Positions 99-39,529 of a stretch of 41,251 nt of DNA are shown one piece after another (the stretch's first letter is position 1; every line of letters starts with the position of its first letter). Below the pieces are notes generated by a model, which was given only the letters and a program-made list of their open reading frames with translations, was not told the DNA's origin and searched no databases. Source of the DNA: an uncultured Methanosarcinales archaeon (GTDB taxonomy: Archaea; Nanobdellota; Nanobdellia; Woesearchaeales; DATDXC01); contig CAYUUQ010000001.1 in NCBI GenBank assembly GCA_964447875.1, positions 1 through 41,251 on the forward strand, read 5' to 3'. A program made the position numbers and the translations under genes.

Positions 99-1553
99 TT
101 ATGTTTTTCTTGTTAAACTTTCGTAAAAATCTTTTATTTGTTTTTCAGGCATACACCTAAAAAATAAGTTTTTCATTCTAAATAATGCGATTGGTCTGTA
201 AAGTGAAGCAAGTTTTTTTATAACCTTTGATTTGATATAGATCCTTGGTTTGGAGTCTATAAAGAGGGAGGTAAAATATAGTCCCTCAAGTAATTTCTTA
301 GTTTTTTCATCTAACCAGTTAGTTTTCACTTTTCTCCAATCATGATCTGCCCAATCTTCGAGGTATGTGGGGGGTAAAAACCCTGCTTGGATAGATTGTT
401 TGAATGATTCGGTTCCGAGATAGGGAACATAGATTGAAAAAAATTTAATTATAGAATTTGGATTATCTTTTATGAGTTTAAGGGCCAAATTAACACTTTC
501 TTTTAAGTCTTTAGTGGTCTCCATAGGAAATCCACACATAAAATTATGTTCAAGCCTAATAGGATAGTCACTGATTCTTTTATTGAACTGATATATATGA
601 TTTAAGTTGTTTTTTTTATTAAGGGAATTTAGTATTTTCTTAGATCCAGACTCTGTTCCAATTTGCATACTAATACAACCACTTTTAACAAGCAGTTCCA
701 TGAATTCTGAATCAATTTGAGATAGTGCTAAAGAGGTGAGACCTTGACATTCCCAGCTTAAGTTATAATCACAGAGCTTTTGAATAATTTCCTTTGCTCG
801 TTTGATATTGACAAAAAAATTGTCGTCTTGTATATTAATATGTTCTATCTTATTGGATTGATTTAATAAATCTTCCAATTCTTTAATAAAGTTAGATGGA
901 CTCATAGATCTCCAACAATTATTATTCACTGTATTATAACAGTAGCTACATTTGTTGGGGCAACCTCTTGAAGAGAAAATATTTATAGCAAGCTTGTCAT
1001 CCTTTGTGGTAAGGTAATCATCTAGATTTATTATACCATAAGGTATTTTGGGTAGTTTATTTAAATCTAAAAATGGTCTTTTATTGTTGGTATAGATTTT
1101 TCCTTGCTTTTTGAAAGATATGCCTAAAATATTCTTTAAATCGTTTTTATGGTCAAGACATTTAACTAATTCATAAAAAGTAAGTTCTCCTTCCCCCCTA
1201 ACGACTATATCTATATTTTTGTTTTTCAATGTTTGTTCTGGTAATATGGTTGGATGAATTCCGCCCCATATAACAGGGATATTTGATTCTTTCTTTATAA
1301 AAGCTGAGGCGGATAGTGCATGATTTATTTGTGGTCCTGTCATTGATGTTGTGGCAAAACAAATTGGATTTTTATTTAATTCTTTTTTTAATGCGCCCCT
1401 CCAATTTTTATTAAGCCTTTCATCTATTAATTTTATACTATACTCCTTATTTACGAATCTTGAAGCACTTAGTAAACCCAAAGGTATATGTGGTGTGTTT
1501 ATACAAGACCAATCACCACCAATTGAAGGTAGAAATAATATTAAGTCTGCCAT
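99..1553 (-). CDS. Class B (cobalamin-binding domain) radical SAM enzyme
   Basis: 484-aa ORF. N-terminal B12-binding-type region (IPLGLLSASRF, VIWGGIHPT, VVRGEGELT) is followed by FSSRGCPNKCSYC, a CxxxCxxC cluster motif. ATG start, TAA stop. Confidence 0.85.
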   Translation of the reverse strand: MADLILFLPSIGGDWSCINTPHIPLGLLSASRFVNKEYSIKLIDERLNKNWRGALKKELNKNPICFATTSMTGPQINHALSASAFIKKESNIPVIWGGIHPTILPEQTLKNKNIDIVVRGEGELTFYELVKCLDHKNDLKNILGISFKKQGKIYTNNKRPFLDLNKLPKIPYGIINLDDYLTTKDDKLAINIFSSRGCPNKCSYCYNTVNNNCWRSMSPSNFIKELEDLLNQSNKIEHINIQDDNFFVNIKRAKEIIQKLCDYNLSWECQGLTSLALSQIDSEFMELLVKSGCISMQIGTESGSKKILNSLNKKNNLNHIYQFNKRISDYPIRLEHNFMCGFPMETTKDLKESVNLALKLIKDNPNSIIKFFSIYVPYLGTESFKQSIQAGFLPPTYLEDWADHDWRKVKTNWLDEKTKKLLEGLYFTSLFIDSKPRIYIKSKVIKKLASLYRPIALFRMKNLFFRCMPEKQIKDFYESLTRKT

Positions 1554-1593
1554 TTTAGTTTCTAATTAAATTTATAACCAAAAAACTTATTTT

Positions 1594-3261
1594 TTATGTT
1601 ATATTATTATTTTCTAACTCAAAGATTTTTATGTATTTAACTCTTTTTCCTGTTGGATATATAAATGTTCTTTTCAATTTTGAAGAATTTATGAACTTAG
1701 TTAGGTAAATTGAAGAATTATCAACATATTCTAACTCAAGGGTATTATAATAAATAACATCAAACTTTTCTTTGTTTGAAGGTGATGGCCAAATAACATC
1801 CATATTAGTGTGAGTGTAACCAAAATAAGGATATTTCAGGAAGAAATAGGCAATACCACCTACAACTATTGTCCTATTCGTATAATTATTATTTAAATAG
1901 TCTATCGATTCCTTATATATTTTTGTAATTTTTAAATATTCTAAGTTTGTTTCCTCAAAATCTTCAGGAGAATATGGTTCATGAAGAACAGGATGAAAAT
2001 ATTGAGAGATAAATATAATTATTATTAAGAAAGTAATAAAATAAGAATATTTCTTAAACAAATTACATAAGTAATTAGCAGCTATTATCATGAAAAATAT
2101 TAAAAATGGTAGTATGTGTCTTAATCGAAATTCTATGTTTGTAAGTACAAAAAAAGAAGATATAGTCAATAGAAATATTAAAATTGTAAATTTCCTAACC
2201 CTATTTTGATTAAACTCAATTATCTTTTCTTTAAAACCTAATAAATAAAACAAAAGTCCCAGATAAAAGAAAGGCATAGAAATTAAGATCCATGTAGTTA
2301 TTATACAATACAAAAAAGAAAGAGAACCGAGGATAATAAATGTTGTTTTCATTTCAAATTTGCTCTTTAAGAAATCTTGAGTAATCCCCAATAATATGAT
2401 TAGGAATGGAATCCACATAAAATGTTCAAATAAAAAACTCCAAGAATTAATAAATATCTTGTTTAATAAAGGATGTATCCCTAAAAACATAAATGACCGT
2501 GAACTAAACCAAAACCAACCAAATACTAGGTAATGAAAAAAAATCCAAGAAAAAAATAATACTAATGGAATTGTATAGATTAAATTCTTTTTAATATTCT
2601 TAAGAATGCTGCCTTTATAACTATCGATGAATTTATATAAAAAAAGGAAAGGGAATAATATTACTGTAAATTCGTTTGTTAATAACATTAATGAACTAAA
2701 AACTAAAAATGGCTTTCCTTTTTTTCTAATTAGATAGTAGACTGTTGCAGATAAGATAGTGGAAGTAATTATAGACAGGTTTAAGAGACCTGACTGAGCA
2801 AAATATATTGGTGAGAAAAATACTAAAAGAGATGCTATTAATCCAACTTTTTTATTGAATAAATAATTTCCTATTTTATAAATAAAAAATAAATTAATGG
2901 CTGATAGAAGCAAAATAACTATCCTATGTGTGATTACCTTAATACCAAAAATTTTATAAAAAAATCCGATTAGTAAAAAGAGAATGGGTGGATGCATACC
3001 ATCTCCAAAAAGTTCTTCTTGTTTTGAAAGTTCTTCCAAACTTGCGTGGTCTTTAGTTAATTCACCATGTTTATTTAAGTCCCCACCTATAAATGGATTT
3101 AAATTATGATTAGCAATCCATACGCTGTTAGGCATATAAAAAAAATCGTCTCCATAACTAAGGTTATCTACAAAAGGTAGCCTGATTATCATGATTAACA
3201 AAATGTAGAATAATAACAGTTTGTTGTCAGATAAAGATTGGCATACTTTCTTATATATCAT
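1594..3261 (-). CDS. Polytopic membrane protein, GT-C fold glycosyltransferase-like (PMT_2/ArnT-like)
   Basis: 555-aa ORF, almost entirely hydrophobic helices. Acidic motif YGDDFFY lies in the first loop after TM1, and an HPPILF motif resembles that of PMT_2/ArnT-type enzymes. C-terminal soluble domain of about 100 aa. Co-directional with the rSAM at 99..1553. Confidence 0.6.
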   Translation of the reverse strand: MIYKKVCQSLSDNKLLLFYILLIMIIRLPFVDNLSYGDDFFYMPNSVWIANHNLNPFIGGDLNKHGELTKDHASLEELSKQEELFGDGMHPPILFLLIGFFYKIFGIKVITHRIVILLLSAINLFFIYKIGNYLFNKKVGLIASLLVFFSPIYFAQSGLLNLSIITSTILSATVYYLIRKKGKPFLVFSSLMLLTNEFTVILFPFLFLYKFIDSYKGSILKNIKKNLIYTIPLVLFFSWIFFHYLVFGWFWFSSRSFMFLGIHPLLNKIFINSWSFLFEHFMWIPFLIILLGITQDFLKSKFEMKTTFIILGSLSFLYCIITTWILISMPFFYLGLLFYLLGFKEKIIEFNQNRVRKFTILIFLLTISSFFVLTNIEFRLRHILPFLIFFMIIAANYLCNLFKKYSYFITFLIIIIFISQYFHPVLHEPYSPEDFEETNLEYLKITKIYKESIDYLNNNYTNRTIVVGGIAYFFLKYPYFGYTHTNMDVIWPSPSNKEKFDVIYYNTLELEYVDNSSIYLTKFINSSKLKRTFIYPTGKRVKYIKIFELENNNIT

Positions 3262-3385
3262 ATTAGATTATAACCCCACTAAGATAAAAATGGGCAGGAT
3301 GTTAATAAAATTATCTAATTTATGTGAATTTTAAACATGAAAAAAATTCCAGTATATCAAAGATTATTAAGCATAAGTAATATAT

Positions 3386-4477
3386 ATGGGTGATAATCTT
3401 CATATAAAAAATAAAGTAATTTGTATTAGAATGAAAATAAAGAAAATATTGTTTGGTTTAAGTGTACTTCCCTTGCAACTTAAACATTATCTACTTGGAA
3501 TTTGTTACCCTCTTGATGTTTCTTTTAGTATAACTCATAGATGTAATAATAAATGTAGATACTGTAAAATTGAAAAAAATTTAAAATGTGAGGAATTAAA
3601 AACTAATCAAATAATTAGTATGATTGATGAATTGAAAAAAAATGGATTAAAAAGGCTGAGCATTACTGGTGGTGACCCCTTATTAAGGGGAGATATCAAA
3701 GAGATAATTGATTATTGCCATTTAAGGAACATATTTATATCTTTAGGAACTAATGGTAAACTTGTCCCAAAAAGGGTTTCAGAATTAAAAAATTTAGATG
3801 CCTTGGTGTTTAGTTTAGATGGTCCTAAAAAAGTGCATGACTTTTTGAGAGGAAATGGTTCTTATGATTCTGTTATTAGGGCTATTAAGGTTGCAAAAAA
3901 ATCTGGATTGAATGTAATAACAAATACAGTTTTAACAAAACAGAATGTTAAGCACTTATCTCACTTGTTTAAAAAATCAGAGGAACTTGGTTTTATGTGC
4001 TCGTTTCAGAGTTTACACCATCCAAGAATCATAGCAGGGGATACAAAAAGATTTCTCCCAAACAAAAAAGAAGTAGATGAAGCTATTCAATATATAAAGA
4101 AACAGAAAGGTATTTTGAAAAATGTTATAAATTCTAAACATTATCTTTCTATTTTAAGTAAGTTAAATGAGTATTGTTTATCAAAAAACCCTTGCAAAAA
4201 AGTTTCTGGAATTTACTTTAGAAAAATAAAATGTTTTGGAGGTAGATTACACTGCCATATAACAGCAAATGGGGATGTATATCCCTGTTCCAAAACTGTG
4301 GGATATGAAAAAACTTATAATTTTTTTGATTTTGATTTTAAAGAAATAACCCGAATGATCCTAGGAAAAAAAAGGTATTGTTCTGCTCTTTGTGGAAATG
4401 TCCTGGAATATAATTTACTTTTTTCTATGGATTTAGATTCTATAACTAATGCTTTTAAATTTATGAAAATAAATTGA
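3386..4477 (+). CDS. Radical SAM enzyme with C-terminal Cys-rich (SPASM/twitch-like) extension
   Basis: ITHRCNNKCRYC (CxxxCxxC), ITGGDPLL (GGE/D SAM motif), C-terminal CFGGRLHCHITANGDVYPC and YCSALC. Paralogue of 13299..14318. The start may instead be the ATG at 3431 (MKIKKILF). Confidence 0.85.
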   Translation: MGDNLHIKNKVICIRMKIKKILFGLSVLPLQLKHYLLGICYPLDVSFSITHRCNNKCRYCKIEKNLKCEELKTNQIISMIDELKKNGLKRLSITGGDPLLRGDIKEIIDYCHLRNIFISLGTNGKLVPKRVSELKNLDALVFSLDGPKKVHDFLRGNGSYDSVIRAIKVAKKSGLNVITNTVLTKQNVKHLSHLFKKSEELGFMCSFQSLHHPRIIAGDTKRFLPNKKEVDEAIQYIKKQKGILKNVINSKHYLSILSKLNEYCLSKNPCKKVSGIYFRKIKCFGGRLHCHITANGDVYPCSKTVGYEKTYNFFDFDFKEITRMILGKKRYCSALCGNVLEYNLLFSMDLDSITNAFKFMKIN

Positions 4478-4581
4478 AACCTGAAAGTTTTGAAATAACA
4501 GAATCAAAATTAATTTAAACTGTTGATGATTTATTTACTTTTTTGTTGATATAATTCATTAAATGGATTTTTAATAATACG

Positions 4582-5313
4582 ATGAAAAGAGCAGGGCTAT
4601 TTATTCCGATATATAATGAAGAGAGAATACTATATAAGAATATTTTGAAAATTCATCAAGAAATAAAAAAACAAAAATTAAAAGTGAATATCTACCTAGT
4701 TGATGATAATTCTAAAGATAACTCCATCTCAAAAGTAAGGCGCCTGATAAGTGTAATCCCCAATCTGCACTACATAAGGTGTAAAGACGGACCATCTAGA
4801 AGGGAAAATCTTAGTAAGGTTATGAGTAAAGCAAAAGAGAAGTATATCTTATTTATGGACTTAGATCTATCTACGAACATACATCATTTAAAGGAAGCGT
4901 TTGTTTTATTATCTAGCGGCCATATGATAGTAATAGGAAATAGATATTCCAAAAAATCAAAGTTAAAAAGGAGACTAGTAAGGTTACTCATAAGTAGAGC
5001 ATATAACCTAATAATAAATATATTCTTCGATTCGAAACTAAAAGATCATCAATGTGGCTTTAAAGGTTTTGAAAGAAATACTTTTAAAAAGATAGTTAGA
5101 ATAATGGGTTATGATAAATCAAAAAGTAGGGGCTGGTTTTGGGATGCTGAATTATTAATCATAGCTAAGAAAATGGATATAAAAATAATTGAGTTAGGAG
5201 TTGGTTGGGAAGAAAGTAAGAAAAGTAGTTTTAATTTTATACGTGAGATAAGGATGATCCCACATATTATATTTAAATTACCTAAAATAATGAAAAAGAT
5301 AAAAAAGAATTAG
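4582..5313 (+). CDS. GT2 family glycosyltransferase, polyprenyl-phosphate sugar synthase-like (DPM1/ArnC/GtrB-like)
   Basis: FIPIYNEE, VDDNSKDNS and FMDLDLS (DxD-type) motifs. Its 243 aa with no TM domain fits the small polyprenyl-P sugar synthase class. Confidence 0.8.
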   Translation: MKRAGLFIPIYNEERILYKNILKIHQEIKKQKLKVNIYLVDDNSKDNSISKVRRLISVIPNLHYIRCKDGPSRRENLSKVMSKAKEKYILFMDLDLSTNIHHLKEAFVLLSSGHMIVIGNRYSKKSKLKRRLVRLLISRAYNLIINIFFDSKLKDHQCGFKGFERNTFKKIVRIMGYDKSKSRGWFWDAELLIIAKKMDIKIIELGVGWEESKKSSFNFIREIRMIPHIIFKLPKIMKKIKKN

Positions 5314-5454
5314 TTACTTTTTCTTCGTCTTATCCGCTAGTTTATTTAATATTTCTAATAGTTCTTTTTTACATCTATATAACTCATATGCTGCAATTAA
5401 GATTCCTATGGCTATAGGTAATTGCGTCCATATTATTGCTGATACTGTATCCAT
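5314..5454 (-). CDS. Candidate small single-TM protein (46 aa), absent from the ORF track
   Basis: Hand translation gives MDTVSAIIWTQLPIAIGILIAAYELYRCKKELLEILNKLADKTKKK, one hydrophobic helix plus a Lys-rich tail. Its ATG lies 1 nt after the stop of the preceding small ORF. Together the pair fills an otherwise empty 320-nt gap. Confidence 0.3.
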   Translation of the reverse strand: MDTVSAIIWTQLPIAIGILIAAYELYRCKKELLEILNKLADKTKKK

Positions 5455-5455
5455 T

Positions 5456-5581
5456 TTATTTTAAAAGACTATTTTTAATTCTTTTTAAATCTTTCCTAAA
5501 TTTTTTAATGAAGATTATACCTAAGATTATTACTAGAATATAAATAATGTGAGTTATGATCAATGCATTTCCAGTAATCAT
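5456..5581 (-). CDS. Candidate small single-TM protein (41 aa), absent from the ORF track
   Basis: Hand translation gives MITGNALIITHIIYILVIILGIIFIKKFRKDLKRIKNSLLK, a hydrophobic helix plus a basic tail (positive-inside pattern). The ATG at 5581 lies about 25 nt from the centre of the palindromic TATA-like element. Confidence 0.3.
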   Translation of the reverse strand: MITGNALIITHIIYILVIILGIIFIKKFRKDLKRIKNSLLK

Positions 5582-5600
5582 TCTAACTGTATACTAGGTA

Positions 5601-5612
5601 ATATTTAAATAT
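5601..5612. promoter_or_regulatory. Palindromic TATA-like element ATATTTAAATAT between divergent start codons
   Basis: Perfect 12-nt palindrome centred 27.5 nt upstream of the ATG at 5634 and 25.5 nt upstream of the minus-strand ATG at 5581. This spacing fits archaeal TATA boxes on leaderless genes. Caveat: AT-rich DNA produces TATA-like strings by chance. Confidence 0.3.
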
Positions 5613-5633: not shown

Positions 5634-6413
5634 ATGAAAGATATAATAATGACTATTGACTTCGAATGTAATTTTAAGAGTAAAGAATCGATAGAAAATA
5701 ACTTAAAAAAAGTTTTGAATATATTTGATAAGTATAATGTTAATTCTACTTTTTTTATTGTTGGTAAATTAATAGAAAAATATATTGATATAATTAAGAT
5801 AATACCTAAAAAATATGAAATTGCTGCACATGGATTTAAGCATGTGGCACTAAATAGAATAAATGAAAAAGAAATACAAAAAGAGGTCGTGTTTTCAAAA
5901 AAAAGTATTTTAAAACTAAGAAAAGAATGTTTAGGATTTAGGGCACCATATAATATTATACATCCATTATTACCCCAAATATTAAAAAAAGAAGGATTTA
6001 TTTATGATTCATCTATTTGTAGATCATTTTATCCTGGAAGGTATAATAATAGGAGAGTATCGAATCAGCCCTATATAGCGTCCGCAAATCTAAAAAATAA
6101 AGGTAATTTTATTCTAGAGTTTCCAATATCTAGTTATTCTGCACTTAAATTACCATTTGGTTTGTCTTTTATTAAAGCATTCGAAAATTTATATCCATTA
6201 AACAAAATAGAAAATAATTCTGTATTTTATATGCATGATTATGATATAAACAGTAAGAATTATCCGAAAGATGTTTCATTTTTTACAAAGATTTTTTTAA
6301 ATAAGAATAAAAAAAGTGGTTTAAGAATTTTAAAGCAAATTTTAGAAAGTGATTATAATTTTATTTCATGTAAAGACTATATCAAAATAAAATACCCTAA
6401 GTTGCTGAATTGA
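5634..6413 (+). CDS. Polysaccharide deacetylase (CE4 / NodB-homology domain, ArnD-like)
   Basis: IMTIDFE, FFIVGKLIEKY, EIAAHGFKHV and LGFRAPY motifs appear in the order expected for NodB-homology deacetylases. Confidence 0.7.
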   Translation: MKDIIMTIDFECNFKSKESIENNLKKVLNIFDKYNVNSTFFIVGKLIEKYIDIIKIIPKKYEIAAHGFKHVALNRINEKEIQKEVVFSKKSILKLRKECLGFRAPYNIIHPLLPQILKKEGFIYDSSICRSFYPGRYNNRRVSNQPYIASANLKNKGNFILEFPISSYSALKLPFGLSFIKAFENLYPLNKIENNSVFYMHDYDINSKNYPKDVSFFTKIFLNKNKKSGLRILKQILESDYNFISCKDYIKIKYPKLLN

Positions 6414-6417
6414 TAGA

Positions 6418-7329
6418 CTATTTTTTTACAATTTTATTAGAGATTACTAAAAAGATAAGTCCGATAAATGATGTGAACCATAAGGTCAAAAACCTTAAAA
6501 CTAGAATTAAAACTGTTGCTAATGAAACATCCATATACAATGAAAGCAAAGCTATGCTACCTCCCTCTACGATACCTATCCCCCCAGGAACCATGGATAA
6601 AGCTCCAGCTACTAAGGAAAATAAATAAATGGAAAATATTCCAAAAAAAGAAAAATCTATACTCAAATCTTGTAATATAAAAAATAATGCTCCGCCCATA
6701 CATAAATAGTGTAAAAATGTAAGTAATAGGGATAAAGATAAAATCTTGTTACTCATGAGGGATTTAGAAGAATTAAATGCTTTTTTTAGAGATTTAATTG
6801 GTTTAAAAGAAAACTTCTTGATTAGAAATGATATTATATTTAAATATAATCTTGGTTTTTTTAGAGAAAAATAAAGGATTAAAAATATAAAAATTAAATA
6901 AATTGCTAGATTTGTTTTACCCAAAATAAAAAGAAATGGCGAGCAGAGAATTAAAATAACAAAAAAATTAGTTAGATTTGAGATAAAATGAATTGGAACT
7001 GATGAAGTAAATGATACTCCTTCTTTTTTAATGAAATAGTATCTTATTAGTTCTCCAGATTTTGATGGCATAAATCCAAAAGCAAATCCTGACATGAAAA
7101 AAGCTATGTTTTTATAGAGATCTAATGAAATGTTGAGTTCTTTTAAATAGAAGGACCAGCGAATAAACTCAAAGAGAATCGCAAATAAAACAAAAAGTAA
7201 AGATATTAAAAAATAAGGTAAAGATAACATTTTTAAGTTTTCTAAAATATCTTCTATACCTATAAACTTTAAAATTAGAAAATAGATGATTACCGCAAAT
7301 AATAAAAAGTAGTGTGCTTTTTTGTTCAT
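6418..7329 (-). CDS. Flippase-like integral membrane protein (lysyl-PG synthase TM region / UPF0104-like)
   Basis: 303 aa with about 8 TM helices. The C-terminal GALSMVPGGIGIVEGGSIALL motif is typical of this family, which commonly neighbours GT2 genes. Confidence 0.6.
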   Translation of the reverse strand: MNKKAHYFLLFAVIIYFLILKFIGIEDILENLKMLSLPYFLISLLFVLFAILFEFIRWSFYLKELNISLDLYKNIAFFMSGFAFGFMPSKSGELIRYYFIKKEGVSFTSSVPIHFISNLTNFFVILILCSPFLFILGKTNLAIYLIFIFLILYFSLKKPRLYLNIISFLIKKFSFKPIKSLKKAFNSSKSLMSNKILSLSLLLTFLHYLCMGGALFFILQDLSIDFSFFGIFSIYLFSLVAGALSMVPGGIGIVEGGSIALLSLYMDVSLATVLILVLRFLTLWFTSFIGLIFLVISNKIVKK

Positions 7330-7342: not shown

Positions 7343-9058
7343 ATGAGGGGTTTTAAAAATCTTTTTAAAATGATATTAGGTATATGGGATGGTCATGACT
7401 CTGGAGCAGCAATCATAAAAGATGGAAAAATAGTTGTTGCTGTCAATGAAGAAAGATTCACAAGAAGAAAATTAGAAGTTTTATTCCCTAAGAACTCAAT
7501 TAGATTCTGTTTAAAGAGCCAAGGATTAAATCCTAATGATATAGAAGATGTTGCATATAGCACTTCAGATTTCTCATTAACATTAACAAGAAGGATTCCT
7601 AAAATAAAAGATGATTATTATTATGTCAGAAGAAGGATAAAAAAAAGTGGGATGGATAATATTAATAGAAAAATACTAAATAGGACAGGTAGATTAAGAT
7701 CAAATTATATTTTTCAACTTATATCTAATAATGTATTAAAAAAAGAATTAAATAAACTAGGATTTAATAATTATAAGTTACATTTGGTTGATCACCATCA
7801 GGCTCATGCTGCTACAGCATATCTGGCTTCTGGTATGAATAAAGCTCTGACAATCACTATGGATGGGCTTGGAGATGGACTATCAGCCACAGTAAATGTA
7901 TGTAATGATGGAGATATAGAGAAATTATATGAAATTGGAACAAAAGATTCTTTGGGCCTTTTTTATCAAGAAATCACTGCTTTATTAGGAATGAGAATAC
8001 TTGAAGATGAAGGAAAAGTAATGTGCCTTGCAGATTACTCTGAAAGGATATCTAAAGAAAAGAATATTATGATGGATTTCTTTAAAATTGAGAAAGGTCT
8101 TATAAAATGTAATATTTCTTTAGGTCGTAGGTTTTCTTTGTTAAAAAATATATTAGAGAATAATAAGAAAGAAGTATTTTGTAGAATGGCTCAAGATGTA
8201 TTAGAACATTATTGCCTAAATTGGTTTAAAGAAATCATTAAAATAACAGGAATGAAGAATGTTTGCTTAGCCGGAGGAATTTTTTCAAATATAAAAAATA
8301 ATATGAATCTTATAGATAATTTAGATATTCATAACTGGTTTATATTTCCCCATATGGGAGATGGTGGATTAGCAGTTGGTGCTGCTTTGTTTGTGAGCAA
8401 TATGAAATATGGTACAAAACCATATGCTCTTGATAATATTAATTTTGGACCAGAGTATACTGAAGAAGATGTAAAAAAGTGTTTATCGAATTATAGAAAA
8501 AAAGTTGATTGTTATAAAATAGATGAACCAGCTAAATTTGCAGCAGAAGAAATAAGTAAATCAAAAATAATCTATTGGTTTAATGGTAAAATGGAATATG
8601 GGCCAAGATCATTAGGTAATAGAAGTATTTTGGCTTTACCTTCAAATATGAACCTAAAAGATGATCTTAATAGGATTATAAAGAGGAGAAGCTTATACCA
8701 ACCTTTCTGTCCATCTATATTAGAAAAAGATGCTAAAGAATTATTAGAACCATTCAAAAAAGCGGATCCTTTTATGACTATGGGATATAAGATAAAAGAA
8801 ATAAAAAGAAATTTTTTGGCAGCTGCTCAGAGTGTGGATGGGTCTTGTAGGCCGCAAATTATACCTTCATCTGATGAGGAATACTCTAAGCTATTACGTA
8901 ATGTTAAGAAAGAAATTGGTATTGGGGCTGTTCTAAATACGAGTTTTAATATACATGGTTATCCTTTGGTTATGAGTCCAGAAAATGCTATAGAAACATT
9001 GTTAAGTGCAAGAGAAGGTAAACTAGTTATGGGGAACTTTTTAGTTGAAATAAAATGA
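7343..9058 (+). CDS. Carbamoyltransferase, NodU/CmcH/TobZ family
   Basis: ILGIWDGHDSGAAIIKDGKIVVAVNEERFTRRK, VDHHQAHAATAY, EYGPRSLGNRSILA and LNTSFNIHGYPLV. The family-typical N-terminus suggests the true start is the ATG at 7370 (MILGIWDG). ATGA overlap with the next gene. Confidence 0.9.
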   Translation: MRGFKNLFKMILGIWDGHDSGAAIIKDGKIVVAVNEERFTRRKLEVLFPKNSIRFCLKSQGLNPNDIEDVAYSTSDFSLTLTRRIPKIKDDYYYVRRRIKKSGMDNINRKILNRTGRLRSNYIFQLISNNVLKKELNKLGFNNYKLHLVDHHQAHAATAYLASGMNKALTITMDGLGDGLSATVNVCNDGDIEKLYEIGTKDSLGLFYQEITALLGMRILEDEGKVMCLADYSERISKEKNIMMDFFKIEKGLIKCNISLGRRFSLLKNILENNKKEVFCRMAQDVLEHYCLNWFKEIIKITGMKNVCLAGGIFSNIKNNMNLIDNLDIHNWFIFPHMGDGGLAVGAALFVSNMKYGTKPYALDNINFGPEYTEEDVKKCLSNYRKKVDCYKIDEPAKFAAEEISKSKIIYWFNGKMEYGPRSLGNRSILALPSNMNLKDDLNRIIKRRSLYQPFCPSILEKDAKELLEPFKKADPFMTMGYKIKEIKRNFLAAAQSVDGSCRPQIIPSSDEEYSKLLRNVKKEIGIGAVLNTSFNIHGYPLVMSPENAIETLLSAREGKLVMGNFLVEIK

Positions 9059-10845: not shown

Positions 10846-10855
10846 AATGGTTAAA
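10838..10855 (+). repeat. Perfect 9-bp tandem duplication ATGGTTAAA x2 spanning a stop/start junction
   Basis: ATGGTTAAA occurs at 10838-10846 and again at 10847-10855. The first copy contains the TAA stop of the upstream gene (10843-10845). Each copy provides an ATG, so the protein begins MVKMVK. Confidence 0.9.
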
Positions 10856-18019: not shown

Positions 18020-18022
18020 AAA

Positions 18023-19039: not shown

Positions 19040-19049
19040 AATTATAAAA

Positions 19050-24408: not shown

Positions 24409-24454
24409 AATATGAAAGACATTATATTGGTATCTCAAGGTCTTGATTATTTTG

Positions 24455-29808: not shown

Positions 29809-29844
29809 TGTTACTTTTTTTTGGTTATATTTCTATATCCCCTT

Positions 29845-31578: not shown

Positions 31579-32280
31579 TTAACTATACCTGATTCTAAAG
31601 CGCCAAAGTGAAAGTAATTGTTCGTATGATGTGCTAAAAATATTAAGGCTTGATTTTCCTTTTTCTTCCCAACATAAAGGTAATTCCTTTATGGTGTATT
31701 TCCTCTTTCTTGCCTCTAACATAAACTCAAGATCCCACGGCCAACCATTACTTTTAATTTCTCCATTTATACTAATAAAAATGTCCTTTCTAAATGCCTT
31801 AAGTCCTACATCAGTATCATGAATTCTTAGTTTTGGAAAAATAATCCTGACTAAAGTAATATATATTTTACTTAGCATAGATCTATAAAATTTCCTTTTT
31901 ATTCTTGAATTCGGCATATATCTAGATGCAATAACAATATCATATTTCTTAAGGGTGTGTATCATTTTTTCTATTATCCTTAAATCTATAGTTAAAGGAA
32001 TATCTACGTCCATGAATAGTACCCTAGTTCCTTTAATTGAACTACAGGTTCTTTTTAATGCGTGACCCCTTCCCTTGTTTTTATTATTATTAATAAATTT
32101 TATATTGTTATTTATGTTAGAAAGTTTTTTTATGATATCAAAAGACTTATCTGTTGAACCATCATTTGATAATATTATTTCATTTTTTAAGTTTAATCTC
32201 TTCATGTAATTTACTAAAGTAAGTATATTTTTCTCTAATTTATCTTCCTCATTATAAACAGGAATTACAATCGAAATCAT
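31579..32280 (-). CDS. GT2 family glycosyltransferase, polyprenyl-phosphate sugar synthase-like (DPM1/ArnC-like)
   Basis: ISIVIPVYNEE, LSNDGSTDKS and FMDVDIP. I place the start at the ATG at 32280, which forms an ATGA overlap with the SDR stop and gives the family-typical N-terminus MISIVIPVYNEE. The ORF track extends to 32346. Confidence 0.8.
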   Translation of the reverse strand: MISIVIPVYNEEDKLEKNILTLVNYMKRLNLKNEIILSNDGSTDKSFDIIKKLSNINNNIKFINNNKNKGRGHALKRTCSSIKGTRVLFMDVDIPLTIDLRIIEKMIHTLKKYDIVIASRYMPNSRIKRKFYRSMLSKIYITLVRIIFPKLRIHDTDVGLKAFRKDIFISINGEIKSNGWPWDLEFMLEARKRKYTIKELPLCWEEKGKSSLNIFSTSYEQLLSLWRFRIRYS

Positions 32281-33176
32281 TTTGTATTTTTGTACCAATT
32301 GATATATTTTTTCATTCCTTCTAAGAAAGTTGTTTTTGGTTGCCAATTAAGGTCTATTTTTGCTTTTTCTGAAGATACTGTTTTTCCTTTATAGTCTCCT
32401 TCTCTAGCTTCTTTATGTATTATTTCTACGTCGCCCATGTTAGATTTTATTGTTTCTGCCACTTGTTTTATCGATATTGGTTCAGTTCCATCGAGATTAT
32501 AGATTTTGTTTTTAGCTAACTCATTTAGGGCTAAAACATTTCCTTCTGCTAAATCTTCAACATAAATAAAGTTTCTATATTGTTTTCCGCTGCCATTAAT
32601 TGTTAATGGTTCTTTATTTATTGCCTTTCTTACAAAAATAGGTATAACTGTGGTTTCCCTTGCTCTTGGGCCATAAGGAATACCATATCTTAAAATTGTA
32701 AAATCTTGATCGTATAATTCTTTATAATCATGACAAAATAACTCTCCTGCTATTTTAGTTGAAGTATATATATGTCCTGCTCCAGGCATATGGAAAGGAC
32801 TTTTTTCATCTACGTTTTCTTCTTTTGAACCTGCATAAACCCATACAGTACTTGCAAATATTACTCTTTTAATATTATTTACTCTTGCGGCTTCTAGAAT
32901 ATTTATTGTTCCGGTACTGTTTAAATTAATACATTTTATTGGATCTTTGTATGCTTTGTTTACATTAGAAACAGCTGCTAAGTGATATATAACATCAATA
33001 TTCTTTGTTGCCTCTTTTAATTTATTAAAATCTAGAATATCTCCATTAATATGATTAAGCGGTTGCTTATATGGTTCTGCTAAGTCAAAAGTGGTAACAT
33101 TATGGTTTTCTTCCGCTAGTTTATCTACTACATGGCTTCCTATAAATCCATTTCCACCGGTTACAAGTATATTCAT
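32277..33176 (-). CDS. Extended SDR NAD-dependent sugar-nucleotide epimerase/dehydratase/decarboxylase
   Basis: ILVTGGNGFIGSH (GxxGxxG) and YTSTK (YxxxK). The 299 aa length is typical of UDP-sugar 4-epimerase or UDP-GlcA decarboxylase-like enzymes. Confidence 0.9.
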   Translation of the reverse strand: MNILVTGGNGFIGSHVVDKLAEENHNVTTFDLAEPYKQPLNHINGDILDFNKLKEATKNIDVIYHLAAVSNVNKAYKDPIKCINLNSTGTINILEAARVNNIKRVIFASTVWVYAGSKEENVDEKSPFHMPGAGHIYTSTKIAGELFCHDYKELYDQDFTILRYGIPYGPRARETTVIPIFVRKAINKEPLTINGSGKQYRNFIYVEDLAEGNVLALNELAKNKIYNLDGTEPISIKQVAETIKSNMGDVEIIHKEAREGDYKGKTVSSEKAKIDLNWQPKTTFLEGMKKYINWYKNTK

Positions 33177-34282: not shown

Positions 34283-34369
34283 TAAAGAAAGAAAGAAATA
34301 GGGTTACTTATAAATTTATCTGATAGGATAAATATCTATTATAGAATATAGAAAAGGTTATATAAAAAG

Positions 34370-36163: not shown

Positions 36164-36165
36164 AC

Positions 36166-36918
36166 TCAATACAAAGATAAGTTGGGTTTAGCTTTTTGAT
36201 ATTCTTTATATGCTTTTATCCATGTCTTTGACATCATTTCTTTAGTTATCCTCTTATCATTATTAAAGTTTCTTTTAAAATGCCCGCAAAAACGACATAG
36301 TAATCTTAATTGACTTTTTAATGTTTGTTGATTTACTAATGAAAGTCTCTTTATAGCTATATCAAAACCAAATACTCTATCAAGGCTAGCCCCTGCACCA
36401 CATGGATAATAACCATATCTAGTCAGCCCCAATCCACATTCTTGAGTTGTCTTACAACCTCTAGTGAAATCTGCGTTCTTATATTCTTTTATATCAATTG
36501 GTGATATGTTATAACTAAAAAACTTATTTTTAATAGAAGTTTTATATGAATTTCTAATATTCACCCAACTTGGTAATTTGGATAAAATTTTATTAACTTT
36601 TCTACCATACCCATTTGTTACAAGTTCTATAATACAATTCTGTTTTATGTCCCTATATCTTTTTAAGATCCTTAGGATATCAAAAATATGTGGATGTAAA
36701 GTTGGTTCGCCACCAAGTAATCCTATATATTTCCAATTCCAATTTTATTCGATAGATTCATTTACGAACTTAATAATTTGGTTGAGCGTCATCTGTTCAT
36801 TAGATGCGGCTTGTCTAACTGATCTATTACAATTAAAACAACATAAATTGCAAAAGGTAGTTATTTCAATTTCTATCTTTTTCATATTTGGAATCCATGA
36901 TCTTTTCTTATTAGACAT
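36166..36918 (-). pseudogene. Small radical SAM gene with an in-frame TAA at 36745-36747
   Basis: Hand translation from the ATG at 36918 gives MSNKKRSWIPNMKKIEIEITTFCNLCCFNCNR...FVNESIE-TAA-NWNWKYIGLLGGEPTLHPH... This runs in the same frame into the ORF-track piece 36166..36564. The stop separates the CxxxCxxC motif from the GGEP motif. Confidence 0.8.
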
Positions 36919-36961
36919 TTTATATTAAATATCAACTTATTCTAAATCTTATTTTTCAATA

Positions 36962-38674
36962 TCATTTTATTGAATTTTTACTTATTTCAAAAAAATCTTT
37001 ACACATATCGCAATACTCAAAATTTTTACTCTTAACCTTTCTTCTTACAGAAATGGCTTCACTAGAATAATATATATCATGCAGATTTTTCTCAAATATA
37101 TTTCCTATTTTAGCTTCAAGAATAGTTAATGTTCCACAACATGGAAAAACATCACCATTTGGCATTATATCAAGGGTATAATTAGGAACAACACACGGAA
37201 CTTTTTTGTGGAATATTTTACCATATTTTCCTTCTGAAAAATTCTCTAATTCTTCTAAAAATTCATTATTTTTTGATTTATTTATAATAAAAATTTTTGA
37301 TTTCCCAACTAAATCAAAAAAGAAAGGATTGAATGAAATGTTTATTTTTAATTTTTCACTTAGCATGTTAGGAATAATTTTTAAATAAAATTCTTTCATT
37401 TGAACTTTATTCAGCCTTAAATTTGATTTGGATATTACCTTATTTTTTGAATTTTGACTTAAGCAATCAACTTGAGAAAAATAAAGATTATCAACCCCTA
37501 ATCTATCCAAAATTATCGGAAGATCGGATATATGATCATAATTTATTTTTGTAATAACGCAATTTACACCAACTCTTATTTCAGGATTCGATATCTTTAT
37601 TTTTTGTATAAACTCAGTTATTTTATCGAAACTATCGACTCCTGTTATTTTTTTTTGAATATCTTTATCATCTGAGTGTAATGTTAACATAACTTCATCT
37701 AGTAACTTTGAATATTTTATTACTTCGTTATTATTTAAAACTGCATTGGTGGCATATTCTATTTTAAATCCTAATAATTTAGAAAATTCAAAAACTTCTA
37801 TTAGGTTATGATATAAACTAGCTTCTCCACCTGTTATCTTGATATGATTAAAATCTAACACAAATGCTTCAAATAAAATGTTTTTTACTTTTTCAAGAGG
37901 TAAACTAGATTTATTTTCTTGATTCCACCAATCACATATTATACATCTTGAATTACATTTGTCTGTTAACCTTAGGTAAATTGATTTTGTTGGATAATCT
38001 GAAATTGGTTTTGCTATTGAAATAAACTTACTCTTACCATCAAACAACCTAACATCAACCTCTTGTTTTAATTCCCTTAAATTTCTTATACCCTTAACTG
38101 TTTGTTCAAAACTTCCTGGAACTTTAGTTATCTTATCATGTTCTTCAGAGGTTTTACCAAATATATTAATTATAAACTTATTTGCACCAGCATCGATTAT
38201 TTTTTTACAATATTCTAAGTTTGAAAATGCTCTTCCGTTTGATTCTATTGTTATGTATTTATAATCTAACTGTTTTGCATAATCTATTAAAACATCTAAA
38301 TTATCTCTTAATGTTGATTCTCCACCTGTGAAAATTACTTCTTCTCTGAAATAGGATTCTTTGTTATCATTTTTCCATTCTTGAAGTTGATTAAAAACAA
38401 CTTCTTTTCTTTTTCTATCTCCGCCCTTACCTATCTGAAAACAAAAAGAACAATTATTATTGCATTGATGAAAAATTGGTATCTTTAATGGTGTTTTTAG
38501 TTCTTCAAGTATTAATTTAGGAGTGAGATTAGAATTAAATGTCATTTCTAGTTCTGAAAAATTGTTTTTCATCATTGATAATTTTTCTTTTGAATTATTT
38601 AATTCTTTTATTAGATTGGTTAATTGAACAATATCTAGATTGGCTATTGATTTAGAAACGCCTTTATCTACCAA
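36962..38674 (-). CDS. Tandem di-domain radical SAM protein (two complete rSAM cores)
   Basis: Core 1 has CNNNCSFC (38441-38464, verified on DNA) plus FTGGES. Core 2 has CNSRCIIC (37934-37957, verified) plus ITGGEA, then CVVPNYTLDIMPNGDVFPCC and CDMC. The ORF-track start is a TTG. The first ATGs are at codons 34/35. The frame is continuous with the upstream GT-B gene. Confidence 0.85.
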   Translation of the reverse strand: MVDKGVSKSIANLDIVQLTNLIKELNNSKEKLSMMKNNFSELEMTFNSNLTPKLILEELKTPLKIPIFHQCNNNCSFCFQIGKGGDRKRKEVVFNQLQEWKNDNKESYFREEVIFTGGESTLRDNLDVLIDYAKQLDYKYITIESNGRAFSNLEYCKKIIDAGANKFIINIFGKTSEEHDKITKVPGSFEQTVKGIRNLRELKQEVDVRLFDGKSKFISIAKPISDYPTKSIYLRLTDKCNSRCIICDWWNQENKSSLPLEKVKNILFEAFVLDFNHIKITGGEASLYHNLIEVFEFSKLLGFKIEYATNAVLNNNEVIKYSKLLDEVMLTLHSDDKDIQKKITGVDSFDKITEFIQKIKISNPEIRVGVNCVITKINYDHISDLPIILDRLGVDNLYFSQVDCLSQNSKNKVISKSNLRLNKVQMKEFYLKIIPNMLSEKLKINISFNPFFFDLVGKSKIFIINKSKNNEFLEELENFSEGKYGKIFHKKVPCVVPNYTLDIMPNGDVFPCCGTLTILEAKIGNIFEKNLHDIYYSSEAISVRRKVKSKNFEYCDMCKDFFEISKNSIK

Positions 38675-38704
38675 TAGATTGGTTCTTTCTAATTGATCAT
38701 CATA

Positions 38705-39529
38705 TTATTTAACCAAAGCGTAAAGTAAAGATGTGGTTTTTGTATAAATAAAATCATTTATAGTGTTATACCCTACTTGAGAGATTACTAAATCTGCGCA
38801 ATTCATTAATTCTAAAAAATTCTGTTCAAATTTAACAACTGAATCATTAGGTATTTTATTATATGGTCCAGAAATTATTATAAAATTAATGTTTTCGTTT
38901 GTTAGTTTTTCTTTTAATTTTAGAATTAAATCAAAATATTCTTTTGATTTTTTATCTCCTCCGCCGCCTGCAGATGCTAAGATAACTAATTGATTGTTAA
39001 TTATTTTATATTTTTTAGAAACATCTGAATTAATCTTTAATTTTCTAACTAATGGCCCTATAAATTTTATTTTTTCTGAATTTGATAATGATTCTAATAT
39101 TTTTGGTGGTACAGAATATCCTTTAAACTCATCAATAGAATGGGGCAATAAAATTAAATCAATATGTTCGTAATCTGAACTTTTTATGAATTTATCGATA
39201 AGATTGTTTTTATATTTTCTAAAAACAAATATATGTTTTAAAGGGAAATTAAATGTTGTACCTAAAATACCTGTATTGTAACTAGCATCCCAAATTATAG
39301 CGTTTGGTTTATAATCTGTAATTATATTATATATTTCTTCATAATAGTTCTTTTTCTCAATCTTAAAATAGGTATATCCTTTTTGATCTAACCAATAATT
39401 GAATTTAGAATTAGTCATAAATGCTATATCTAAGTGAGGCATTGCTTTTTTTAACATGTCTGCAATTATTATGCTTCTATTTAAATGACCTAGTCCTTCA
39501 CCATTTACAACATAAAATAATATTTTCAT
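38705..39529 (-). CDS. GT-B fold glycosyltransferase (GT28/GT1, MurG/MJ1255-like), apparently truncated by a TAA at 38705-38707
   Basis: MKILFYVVNGEGLGHLNRS (G-x-GH-x-x-R), LASAGGGGDK and ADLVISQVGYNT. The ORF ends about 55 aa short of the family norm. Beyond the TAA, YDDQLERTNLLVDKGVSKSIANLDIVQLTNLIKEL continues the GT28-type C-terminal pattern in the same frame. Confidence 0.65.
   Translation of the reverse strand: MKILFYVVNGEGLGHLNRSIIIADMLKKAMPHLDIAFMTNSKFNYWLDQKGYTYFKIEKKNYYEEIYNIITDYKPNAIIWDASYNTGILGTTFNFPLKHIFVFRKYKNNLIDKFIKSSDYEHIDLILLPHSIDEFKGYSVPPKILESLSNSEKIKFIGPLVRKLKINSDVSKKYKIINNQLVILASAGGGGDKKSKEYFDLILKLKEKLTNENINFIIISGPYNKIPNDSVVKFEQNFLELMNCADLVISQVGYNTINDFIYTKTTSLLYALVK

Follow-up and report, generated by a model that had tools for sequence, protein, structure and literature searches.

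Three-component glycosylation systems follow a common scheme, in which a family 2 glycosyltransferase (GT2) of the dolichyl-phosphate mannose synthase (DPMS) type makes a polyprenyl-phosphate monosaccharide, a flippase turns it over, and a membrane-embedded glycosyltransferase of the GT-C type (PMT_2, YfhO) transfers the sugar to a glycan, a teichoic acid or a protein. GtrB/GtrA/GtrC, CsbB/YfhO and PgfS/PgfM1/PgfE/PgfM2 of Streptococcus mutans in bacteria, and AglD/AglR/AglS and Agl22/Agl23 in archaea, are systems of this kind (the Agl22/Agl23 reference is cited in PMC11407970). The same three types of component are encoded on the DNA analysed here, which is the entire 41,251-bp contig CAYUUQ010000001.1 of a metagenome-assembled genome (MAG) of an archaeon from low-oxygen seawater (26% GC; this whole stretch is called the window below). 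Whereas the described systems have one GT-C and no radical chemistry, six GT-Cs are found here, or seven with the flanking DNA, which belong to at least four unrelated subfamilies, and they are accompanied by 14 genes for radical S-adenosylmethionine enzymes (rSAMs), or 17 with the flanks. Moreover, the flippase-like protein is of the MprF/LPG_synthase_TM type and not of the GtrA or Wzx type of the known systems, and no component reaches an equivalog cut-off. We consider it fairly probable that the window comprises most of a ~55-kb surface-glycan supercluster of a DPANN archaeon, in which a three-component glycosylation at the outer face of the membrane is combined with a tailoring of the sugars by rSAMs.

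Other described pathways resemble parts of this locus. In the Arn pathway (ArnA/B/C/D/E/F/T), by which L-Ara4N is placed on lipid A, a short-chain dehydrogenase/reductase (SDR) and a DegT-type aminotransferase are likewise followed by a GT2, which acts on polyprenyl phosphate, a deacylation of the lipid-linked aminosugar by an enzyme of the polysaccharide deacetylase family, flipping and a PMT_2-type GT-C. The locus described here, however, has no formyltransferase, has carbamoyltransferases and rSAMs in addition, and belongs to an archaeon without lipid A, and the Arn equivalog models are not reached (ArnB 154 vs 631, ArnC 55 vs 529, ArnA 53 vs 777). The hopanoid cyclitol ether pathway HpnI/HpnK/HpnJ shares a GT2, a deacetylase and an HpnJ-like rSAM that act on a lipid-linked aminosugar, and HpnJ (TIGR03471) is indeed the top NCBIfam match for the rSAMs 99 and 27174 (genes are named by the first position of their reading frame in the window), but the scores of 150-193 bits, with 193.3 bits of 27174 as the best of the window, are far from the cut-off of 577.6, there are no hopanoid genes, and a GT-C has no place in the Hpn pathway. 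AprD4, BlsE, BtrN, DesII and GenK are carbohydrate-modifying rSAMs, of which AprD4 and BlsE are the nearest, although distant, solved relatives of enzymes in the window, and the DegT gene beside rSAM genes recalls DesI/DesII. These antibiotic-pathway rSAMs act on soluble intermediates of secreted metabolites, outside of GT-C pathways. Finally, His-Xaa-Ser (Hxs) systems share an HxsC-like domain with the product of 36962, and Hxs genes lie just past the window, but the window itself has no Hxs match above cut-off, and we know of no description of an HxsC-like domain fused to a GT-B glycosyltransferase in such systems. The sugar chemistry of rSAMs is known almost only from antibiotic pathways, and the surface sugars that GT-Cs deliver are thought to be tailored by ordinary enzymes. 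The components and the backbone of the pathway are therefore of known kinds; what appears to be new is that rSAMs are systematically inserted into that pathway, that this occurs on such a scale (14 rSAM genes and six GT-Cs in 41 kb, 17 and seven in ~55 kb), and that it recurs across many uncultured lineages. In agreement with the original prediction, which could not map the locus onto any characterised one, no characterised locus and no paper matched it. The literature searched, on rSAMs in connection with GT-Cs, polyprenyl carriers, DPANN or archaeal N-glycans, holds no description of such modules, but few subscription journals were covered, so a prior description is possible.

The 35 listed open reading frames (ORFs) with 100 aa or more, counted without those situated antisense within a longer gene, were all scanned against Pfam and gave an inventory of 14 rSAM genes, six large polytopic membrane proteins, two GT2s, two GT-B-type glycosyltransferases, two NodU/CmcH-type carbamoyltransferases, and one each of a DegT aminotransferase, an SDR epimerase/dehydratase, a polysaccharide deacetylase, a SAM-dependent methyltransferase, a PP-loop ATPase and an LPG_synthase_TM flippase-like protein. 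The rSAM genes contain 15 rSAM domains and occupy 17.1 kb, or ~41% of the window, practically the count and extent predicted from the letters alone (14 genes, 15 domains, ~17 kb, ~40%), and the extra domain resides in the product of 36962, which has two Radical_SAM stretches, as its earlier description as a di-domain protein implied. As 14 of the ~34 genes of the window encode rSAMs, while the usual share is ~1% of genes, this density is far beyond chance. The Radical_SAM family (PF04055) was found above its gathering score in 99, 3386, 10838, 13299, 14967, 18023, 19050, 22238, 23281, 25112, 27174, 28612 and 36962. These 13 genes, among them the frameshifted gene 24519-25807, score 43-121 bits against a cut-off of 29.5. 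The fourteenth gene, 36166-36918 on the minus strand, is represented in the window by a 132-aa remnant without Pfam match and was recognised by means of its intact allele on the JGI metagenome contig Ga0115649_1000373. The rSAM paralogs of the window are 23-40% identical to each other, which rules out a recent tandem duplication.

With respect to the types of rSAM, six genes had been listed as class B enzymes with a B12-like domain, and seven as SPASM/twitch-like enzymes, and both lists hold in large part. The B12-binding domain (PF02310) is above cut-off in 99, 19050, 24519 and 27174; 10838 has no such Pfam match, and a B12-like N-terminal domain is indicated in it solely by alignment to 19050 and BchE; and Pfam detects no B12-binding domain in the N-terminal 170 aa of 28612. 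SPASM (PF13186, cut-off 21.5) is present in 14967, 18023, 23281 and 36962, falls just short in 3386 (20.0 bits), and is undetected by Pfam in 13299 and 22238, which have C-terminal Cys clusters. All Radical_SAM-positive ORFs contain the CX3CX2C motif except for 25112, due to the frameshift, and 27174, in which residues 208-217 read CX5CX2C (CPYYQRCIYC) with all three cysteines conserved. The latter form occurs in 27174 and its two closest homologs, and the other 20 aligned members of the subfamily have CX3CX2C, so that the alignment suggests a two-residue insertion in the cluster-binding loop that is specific to the small clade of 27174.

As to what these enzymes may act on, the B12-domain enzymes have HpnJ, BchE and PhpK as nearest NCBIfam families, the SPASM-type enzymes AhbD, NirJ, PTO1314 and MoaA, and the di-domain protein 36962 has HxsC, all of them below cut-off. 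The AprD4 family (NF033070) gives 43-85 bits in the window against a cut-off of 500, and the score of the BlsE model is likewise far below its cut-off. In searches against the PDB, the best match of the 27174 subfamily profile is AprD4 (E 1.4e-40), and that of 18023 is BlsE (E 1.3e-9), with GDGT-MAS also among the matches of the latter. AprD4 is a non-methylating diol dehydratase of an aminoglycoside sugar, and BlsE a cytosylglucuronate decarboxylase, so the nearest solved relatives of the 27174 subfamily and of 18023 are carbohydrate-modifying rSAMs, although distant ones. To equate class B enzymes with methylation is thus too narrow. AprD4 is not known to depend on B12 despite its B12-binding domain, and use of cobalamin by the class B enzymes of the window cannot be taken for granted.

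The six large membrane proteins have 8-15 predicted transmembrane (TM) segments, and all of them are GT-C glycosyltransferases, as originally predicted, on the basis of structure models for 34370 and 20510 and of sequence for the other four. Three of the latter, 1594, 9055 and 25816, match PMT_2 (PF13231; scores in Table 1), and 25816 in addition shows a weak match to Agl23. The remaining three, 15926, 20510 and 34370, match no Pfam family, PMT_2 included. Of these, 15926 aligns to 9055 over 542 aa with 30% identity (E 8e-43) and has a weak match to the LA_3751/2 putative glycosyltransferase family. Sequence searches with 20510 and 34370 against Pfam and the PDB gave nothing significant (DUF2079 E 0.13; PIG-M E 0.36). 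Their AlphaFold models are of high confidence (34370: 22-sequence alignment, pLDDT 88.5, pTM 0.89; 20510: 60 sequences, pLDDT 88.9, pTM 0.91), and in Foldseek searches against the PDB, the best 23 matches of each are exclusively GT-C structures (STT3, PglB, AglB, AftD, DPY19 and Pmt4 for 34370; PglB, DPY19, STT3, AglB, AftA and ArnT for 20510; E 3e-6 to 5e-3, probability 1.00, TM score 0.36-0.54). GT-C enzymes carry catalytic aspartates right after the first TM helix, and DD/DE acidic motifs stand directly after TM1 in all six proteins, such as YGDDFFY in 1594 and, according to the models, SDDV and DEDW in 20510 and 34370; these motifs, as well as HPPI in 1594 and HPPL in 25816, were found where they had been noted from the letters.

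In the family of 20510, D35 and D54 are nearly invariant. An exhaustive HMMER search found 633 cluster representatives of this family at E <= 1e-3, as compared to three in a word-indexed search, and no Pfam or NCBIfam model covers them, with sporadic weak matches of members to Dpy19, DUF2079 and PMT_2 only; judged from the model of 20510, they represent a GT-C family that is new to Pfam. One member (P0130, 797 aa) has a GT2 domain fused to its N-terminus. In the case of 34370, YfhO (PF09586) is matched by distant homologs only (E 1e-12 and weaker) and not by the protein itself, and a 30% identical homolog on a related DPANN contig (L096) is annotated as DUF2079.

The association of the two enzyme classes is evident from gene order. 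For five of the six GT-C genes, the direct neighbour on the same strand is an rSAM gene, as originally noted, and three of these junctions overlap by 4-8 nt. These start/stop overlaps suggest translational coupling, and rSAM and GT-C genes would thus be co-translated. The genes are arranged in tightly coupled runs: on the minus strand from 34282 to 25816 there are DegT, SDR, GT2, carbamoyltransferase, rSAM, B12-rSAM and PMT_2 genes, on the plus strand from 13299 to 20501 rSAM, methyltransferase, rSAM, GT-C, rSAM and B12-rSAM genes, and from 7343 to 12295, again on the plus strand, carbamoyltransferase, GT-C and rSAM genes. In addition, fusions of rSAM domains to a GT-B domain and, in the right flank, to a GT2 domain physically link both enzyme classes within one locus.

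The two GT2s are short (243 and 233-255 aa) and have no predicted TM segment. In the PDB, 31579 matches the DPMS of Pyrococcus furiosus (5mlz, E 4e-19), GtrB (E 2e-13) and ArnC (E 6e-10), and the sole match of 4582 is the P. furiosus enzyme (5mlz, E 9e-6). The best NCBIfam neighbour is PgfS, which belongs to protein glycosylation in S. mutans, and for 4582 also AglJ and ArnC, all below cut-off. Both are predicted to be DPMS/GtrB/ArnC-like polyprenyl-phosphate sugar synthases with a lipid acceptor, and the product of 6418-7329 is likely the flippase of the locus. The original prediction had spoken of GT-C enzymes for export and transfer; transfer of sugars is indeed what GT-Cs do, but the export would be the task of this separate flippase-like protein. 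The DegT protein 33173 is nearest to PseC, LegC and DesI, and the SDR 32277 to RmlB, GalE and LegB, none at equivalog cut-off.

The survey of related genomes for rSAM genes next to GT-C genes that had been proposed revealed such neighbours in related DPANN contigs, and for the 27174 subfamily across archaeal and bacterial phyla. One DPANN contig (L097) has 10 rSAM genes in 21.6 kb, together with PMT_2, an ortholog of 20510, three DegT genes and a carbamoyltransferase gene, and the other (L096) has five rSAM genes, homologs of 20510 and 34370, a GT2, a carbamoyltransferase, two DegT genes and a deacetylase gene. The orthologs are 34-65% identical, and the pairs 28612+25816 and 18023+19050 are still adjacent: on L097, the ortholog of 19050 (65% identical) lies beside that of 18023, and the ortholog of 28612 (61%) beside that of the PMT_2 gene. 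Both contigs also carry small DUF5989 proteins beside their carbamoyltransferase genes. Beyond DPANN, 27174 has >2,200 homologs at E <= 1e-20, and a scan of its subfamily in one genome per GTDB species returned 80 loci, 79 of them usable for an ORF map, from Woese-, Pace- and Nanoarchaeota, bacteria of the candidate phyla radiation (CPR), Omnitrophota, Elusimicrobiota, Planctomycetota, Nitrospirota, Desulfobacterota and others. In the 79 loci, DPMS-like GT2s occupy 15% of the positions adjacent to the 27174 homolog, as compared to 1% seven or more genes away, and another rSAM 20% as compared to 6%; for the ±1-3 genes against those seven or more away, the Fisher odds ratios are 5.2 (p 5e-4) and 2.3 (p 0.003), respectively. 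In 42 of the 79 loci, a large polytopic protein is encoded no more than three genes away, and of 65 such neighbours 32 match PMT_2 and 6 PMT (E <= 1e-3). Carbamoyltransferases recur as well, whereas no rSAM-glycosyltransferase fusion occurs in the 80 loci, so that these fusions are so far specific to the locus of this lineage. Loci from Patescibacteria, Aminicenantes, Smithella and Deltaproteobacteria (L076, L077, L023, L056, L085) contain 6-8 rSAM genes in ~20 kb around the B12-rSAM homolog. Loci dense in rSAM genes and similar to glycan loci are thus not confined to DPANN.

How could the components cooperate? In the surface-glycan reading, the SDR and the DegT aminotransferase would make unusual nucleotide sugars in the cytoplasm, and together with the deacetylase this Arn-like front end would yield an aminosugar. 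The DPMS/GtrB/ArnC-like GT2s would load single sugars onto polyprenyl (dolichyl) phosphate, and the sugars would be tailored by the deacetylase, the carbamoyltransferases, the methyltransferase and the many rSAMs, before the flippase-like protein carries the lipid-linked sugar to the outside, where the six GT-Cs (seven with the flank) pass the sugars on to surface acceptors. The rSAMs might edit nucleotide-linked or lipid-linked sugars by deoxygenation, C-methylation, epimerisation, oxidation or decarboxylation, or ring rearrangement, and each GT-C could thereby obtain a donor of its own. Gene order, the fusions and the nearest solved relatives AprD4 and BlsE all suggest that the substrates of the rSAMs are sugars. 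While domain identities, GT-C folds, operon coupling and neighbourhood conservation are directly seen, which lipid carries the sugars, in what order the steps proceed, and what the rSAMs and GT-Cs use as substrates and acceptor, respectively, is what we propose on their basis. The likeliest acceptors would be glycans or residues of S-layer or giant surface proteins, and the left flank indeed encodes, apart from another epimerase and another deacetylase, a Laminin_G_3 surface protein of >1,907 aa (L013 1-1752), ~3.7 kb from the left cluster edge, which is a plausible candidate for an acceptor.

Several observations weigh against this surface-glycan reading. No rSAM of the window reaches the cut-off of any curated NCBIfam family, the best scores being one third of the cut-off or less, and no chemistry can therefore be assigned. 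AprD4 and BlsE are distant relatives, and the match lists also contain enzymes that act on peptides, tetrapyrroles or lipids. With two GT2 loaders and one flippase-like gene for six GT-Cs, the modules are not self-contained, and the idea of six repeated, complete modules has to be abandoned. DPANN archaea are not known to synthesise isoprenoid lipids, in which case the carrier would need to be scavenged. With three disrupted rSAM genes in the window (24519-25807, 36166-36918 and 36962-39529), the locus may in part be decaying. Polytopic proteins are only modestly enriched near 27174 homologs (12% vs 8%, p 0.04), with a weak internal control, because the whole 20-kb neighbourhoods are glycan loci. 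Lastly, there is a genuine His-Xaa-Ser system ~5 kb past the window, and the first domain of the 36962 protein is HxsC-like.

A more general form of the surface-glycan reading, which we put forward tentatively, would be that a widespread branch of glycan biosynthesis exists in uncultured anaerobes, in which B12-domain and SPASM rSAMs edit polyprenyl-phosphate monosaccharides between the GT2 and the GT-C steps, and which is amplified here to ~55 kb, seven GT-Cs and 17 rSAMs as a generator of envelope diversity. Such a branch would span DPANN and Asgard archaea, CPR bacteria, Omnitrophota, Elusimicrobiota, Planctomycetota, Nitrospirota and others, would include at least one GT-C family without Pfam model, and could place C-methylated, deoxygenated or ring-rearranged sugars on cell surfaces, with a possible use in host attachment or virus evasion. 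If true, a conserved module of rSAM, DPMS-type GT2 and GT-C would be a new chemical layer in cell-envelope glycobiology. It would offer testable functions for thousands of proteins that are annotated as 'radical SAM protein' (the >2,200 close homologs of 27174 alone), and would predict unusual sugars on the surfaces of DPANN, CPR and other uncultured anaerobes, in whose symbiotic groups the surfaces mediate host attachment. DPANN genomes are typically ~1 Mb in size, and if this size is assumed, ~5% of the coding capacity resides in this one locus, which implies strong selection on envelope diversity.

What alternatives exist for a surface-glycan function? The SPASM and B12 rSAMs could serve a maturation of peptides as in ribosomally synthesised and post-translationally modified peptides, i.e. 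cross-link or methylate peptides or surface proteins that the glycosyltransferases then glycosylate, as known from mycofactocin or glycocins. Peptide maturases are frequent among the NCBIfam neighbours of the SPASM enzymes, yet all rSAM scores against such models stay far under the cut-offs. HxsC/HxsC4 are the closest models for the first rSAM domain of the 36962 protein, but inside the window no Hxs model is reached (118 bits vs 267.9 for this HxsC-like domain). The situation is different in the right flank, where the cluster runs on for ~8 kb past the window end on the JGI contig. There, a seventh GT-C (PMT_2) and a 625-aa fusion of rSAM and GT2, whose GT2 part resembles MftF-type glycosyltransferases, are encoded, and an Hxs system is found 3.4-7.7 kb past the window end (L010 14615-18957), with HxsB (423.6 bits, cut-off 370) and HxsD (50.9, cut-off 50) above the thresholds. 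The models of HxsA3 (32 vs 65) and HxsC4 (172 vs 500) are not reached; a further HxsD-like protein, a prepilin-peptidase-like membrane protein and an HxsC4-like rSAM are present, as well as an HxsA3-like peptide of 81 aa (...SHSNSLSLSYSGGTATATHTHHANHSSY) with the C-terminal end ...THTHHANHSSY. This is a genuine His-Xaa-Ser system in an archaeon, and it looks complete. It adjoins the rSAM+GT2 fusion and the PMT_2 gene, and because of this, a glycosylated Hxs product is a possibility. Inside the window, in contrast, there is no precursor-like ORF, leader peptidase or exporter: the intergenic gaps hold no precursor-like small ORFs, and only the two single-TM ORFs at 5314-5581 occur, which like the small ORFs of the flank match neither DUF5989 nor precursor-peptide families. 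In six of the seven SPASM-type enzymes, the cluster motif lies 38-71 residues from the N-terminus, and they therefore have no room for a peptide-recognition domain; 23281 is the exception, as its motif lies at residue 91 and its 80-aa N-terminal extension might serve for recognition. Genes for nucleotide sugars and lipid-linked sugars predominate in the locus, and the cross-phylum partners of the B12-rSAMs are DPMS-like GT2s and PMT_2, although no specific search for precursor peptides was made in those loci. For the right-hand end of the cluster, peptide maturation is quite possible, but the gene content of the window agrees poorly with it, and as an explanation for the window it is unlikely.

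Equally unlikely is a remodelling of membrane lipids or glycolipid head groups, in which the rSAMs would act on isoprenoid lipids or head-group sugars, as do HpnJ, calditol synthase and the rSAMs of tetraether lipids, and the GT-Cs would glycosylate lipids as ArnT does with lipid A. Four B12-rSAMs have HpnJ or BchE as best NCBIfam match, there are weak matches to ladderane-lipid enzymes and Tes, and the combination of GT2, deacetylase and B12-rSAM is parallel to HpnI/HpnK/HpnJ; GDGT-MAS and ArnT appear among the structural matches of 18023 and 20510, respectively. However, as described above, the scores are far under the family cut-offs, DPANN archaea generally have no lipid synthesis, which makes a membrane-lipid product unlikely for such a host, and the same module occurs in bacteria with quite different lipids. 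Moreover, six GT-Cs with distinct extracytoplasmic domains fit better to diverse glycan or protein acceptors.

Still less probable is a secondary-metabolite cluster of the aminoglycoside- or nucleoside-antibiotic type that produces a diffusible modified oligosaccharide. The DegT aminotransferase, the methyltransferase, the AprD4- and BlsE-like rSAMs and the NodU/CmcH-type carbamoyltransferases, to whose family TobZ belongs, recall aminoglycoside clusters, but the six GT-Cs, the two DPMS-like GT2s and the flippase-like protein speak for a use of lipid-linked donors outside the membrane and against a soluble product, the Pfam matches of the window include neither a cyclitol synthase nor a resistance gene nor an exporter, and the host is symbiotic with a reduced genome. 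A decaying or hitch-hiking island of rSAM paralogs without functional link to the glycosylation genes is very improbable, as in spite of three disrupted genes among 14 and one frameshift common to two assemblies, the low identity of the paralogs speaks against a recent expansion, a 99.85%-identical contig has neither of the two nonsense codons, other DPANN genomes have kept orthologs and rSAM+GT-C pairs, the adjacency of GT2 and rSAM genes holds across phyla, and starts and stops overlap.

The disruptions differ in nature. In 24519-25807 on the plus strand, three-frame translation reveals a 1-nt frameshift exactly at the CX3CX2C motif, which can be read in the other frame as RCPFNCVYC. The pseudogene had been noticed from the letters, with a start at 24455 that has to be moved to ~24519, and its 5' end is truncated as well, abutting the start codon of the divergent gene 23281-24519. 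As the same split is present in the independent JGI assembly, which is from a different sample, it is a real pseudogene whose inactivating mutation is fixed in this population. Gene 36166-36918, also originally taken for a pseudogene, encodes when read through a 250-aa rSAM with CNLCCFNC and one in-frame stop in the window, but it is intact on the 99.85%-identical JGI contig, with a single difference at 36746. The minus-strand gene 36962-39529 also has one in-frame stop in the window, and two other contigs carry an intact form of 855 aa, which comprises a GT-B glycosyltransferase domain, two rSAM domains and SPASM. An alternative genetic code as cause of the split genes was ruled out, because TGA, TAA and TAG all end normal genes at overlapping junctions, and a 1-nt frameshift together with two single nonsense codons, as seen against a near-identical contig, accounts for the splits. 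The features of the window are compiled in Table 1.

Table 1. Genes of the window, their predicted products and the evidence for them (scores are followed by cut-offs where given).
Position	Strand	Product	Evidence and remarks
99..1553	-	B12-binding rSAM, 484 aa	Pfam B12-binding and Radical_SAM; CPNKCSYC at residue 198; best NCBIfam match HpnJ, 150 bits vs 577.6; 40 nt downstream of GT-C gene 1594
1594..3261	-	GT-C, PMT_2/ArnT type, 555 aa, ~12 TM	PMT_2 44.1 > 26.1
3386..4477	+	rSAM with SPASM-like C-terminus, 363 aa	Radical_SAM 97 bits; SPASM 20.0
4582..5313	+	GT2, predicted DPMS/PgfS-like polyprenyl-phosphate sugar synthase, 243 aa	Glycos_transf_2
5314..5581	-	Two small single-TM ORFs, 46 and 41 aa, gene status uncertain	Called on several contigs
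5634..6413	+	Polysaccharide deacetylase family, 259 aa, ArnD/HpnK-like position	Polysacc_deac_1 49 bits; NCBIfam below cut-off
6418..7329	-	Flippase-like membrane protein, 303 aa, LPG_synthase_TM	PF03706 128 bits; TIGR00374 77.5 > 43.2
7343..9058	+	NodU/CmcH-type carbamoyltransferase, 571 aa	Carbam_trans_N and Carbam_trans_C
9055..10845	+	GT-C, 596 aa, ~15 TM, overlaps both neighbours	PMT_2 30.4 > 26.1
10838..12295	+	Class-B-like rSAM, 485 aa	Radical_SAM; aligns to 19050 over residues 24-448 and to BchE over model positions 17-428; start overlaps GT-C gene 9055 by 8 nt
12482..13225	-	PP-loop ATPase, QueC-like, 247 aa; tailoring by adenylation or amidation probable	QueC 23.2 vs 22, N-terminal PP-loop region only
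13299..14318	+	rSAM, 339 aa, first of six-gene run	Radical_SAM and Fer4_12; NCBIfam PTO1314 below cut-off
14308..14970	+	SAM-dependent methyltransferase, 220 aa	Methyltransf_23 70 bits
14967..15929	+	rSAM/SPASM, 320 aa	SPASM 25.6 > 21.5; 40% identical to 18023 product
15926..18019	+	GT-C, 697 aa, paralog of 9055, between two SPASM rSAM genes	Likeness to 9055
18023..19039	+	rSAM/SPASM, 338 aa	Radical_SAM; SPASM 45.3 bits
19050..20501	+	B12-binding rSAM, 483 aa	B12-binding and Radical_SAM
20510..22144	-	GT-C-fold protein without Pfam model, 544 aa	AlphaFold 2 model and Foldseek
22238..23284	-	rSAM, 348 aa, upstream of GT-C 20510, same strand	Radical_SAM and Fer4_12
23281..24519	-	rSAM/SPASM, 412 aa, 80-aa N-terminal extension	SPASM 48.9 bits
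24519..25807	+	B12-binding rSAM, pseudogene	B12-binding in 24519-25094, Radical_SAM in 25112-25807
25816..27180	-	GT-C, PMT_2 type, 454 aa, last of seven-gene run	PMT_2 58.9 bits
27174..28607	-	B12-binding rSAM, 477 aa, CX5CX2C	Pfam; overlaps GT-C gene 25816 by 7 nt
28612..29808	-	rSAM, 398 aa (413 aa on JGI contig)	Radical_SAM 80.7 bits
29974..31494	-	Carbamoyltransferase, 506 aa (549 aa on JGI contig)	Carbam_trans_N and Carbam_trans_C
31579..32346	-	GT2, predicted DPMS/GtrB/ArnC-like polyprenyl-phosphate sugar synthase, 233-255 aa	Glycos_transf_2
32277..33176	-	NAD-dependent sugar epimerase/dehydratase (SDR), 299 aa	Epimerase 187 bits
33173..34282	-	DegT-type sugar aminotransferase, 369 aa	DegT_DnrJ_EryC1 351 bits
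34370..36163	+	GT-C-fold protein, YfhO/DUF2079-like, 597 aa	AlphaFold 2 model and Foldseek
36166..36918	-	rSAM, 250 aa, one in-frame stop	Translation; intact JGI allele
36962..39529	-	GT-B, two rSAM domains and SPASM, split by stop	Pfam domains
39573..40712	+	GT-B (GT1/GT4-type) glycosyltransferase, 379 aa	Glycos_transf_1 53.9 bits

The JGI contig (122,746 bp) covers the window at 99.85-99.97% identity and runs past both ends. The two differ at only ~25 positions, mostly in the patches 29815-29975 (4 substitutions and 1 indel in 161 nt) and 38690-38762 (11 substitutions in 73 nt). Each patch is situated where two genes or domains meet, and each makes genes of the window shorter or splits them; the cause could be recombination over a short tract or a local error of assembly or polishing. 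The product of 3386 differs in one residue on other contigs. Three antisense ORFs of 116-177 aa, 15140-15673 (-), 33319-33798 (+) and 36578-36928 (+), were treated as spurious, as each lies inside a well-supported gene of the opposite strand, and they are almost certainly artefacts of the AT-rich sequence.

The host is a Nanobdellota-like DPANN archaeon, because a close homolog of the 20510 product, among the few from the word-indexed search, is in a MAG named Nanobdellota archaeon, the flanks on the JGI contig encode an RNase P component 3-like protein (E 2.5e-14, below the curated cut-off) and an RNase Z-type protein of the metallo-beta-lactamase fold, and the related locus L096 adjoins genes for RFC and ribosomal protein L44e. 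With its flanks, the full cluster comprises ~55 kb.

The two small ORFs at 5314-5581 each encode one hydrophobic helix with a basic tail and are located between the GT2 and the deacetylase genes. In the left flank, a 46-aa fragment similar to HicB/ParD antitoxins (L013 1749-1889) lies between the gene of the giant surface protein and the glycan cluster.

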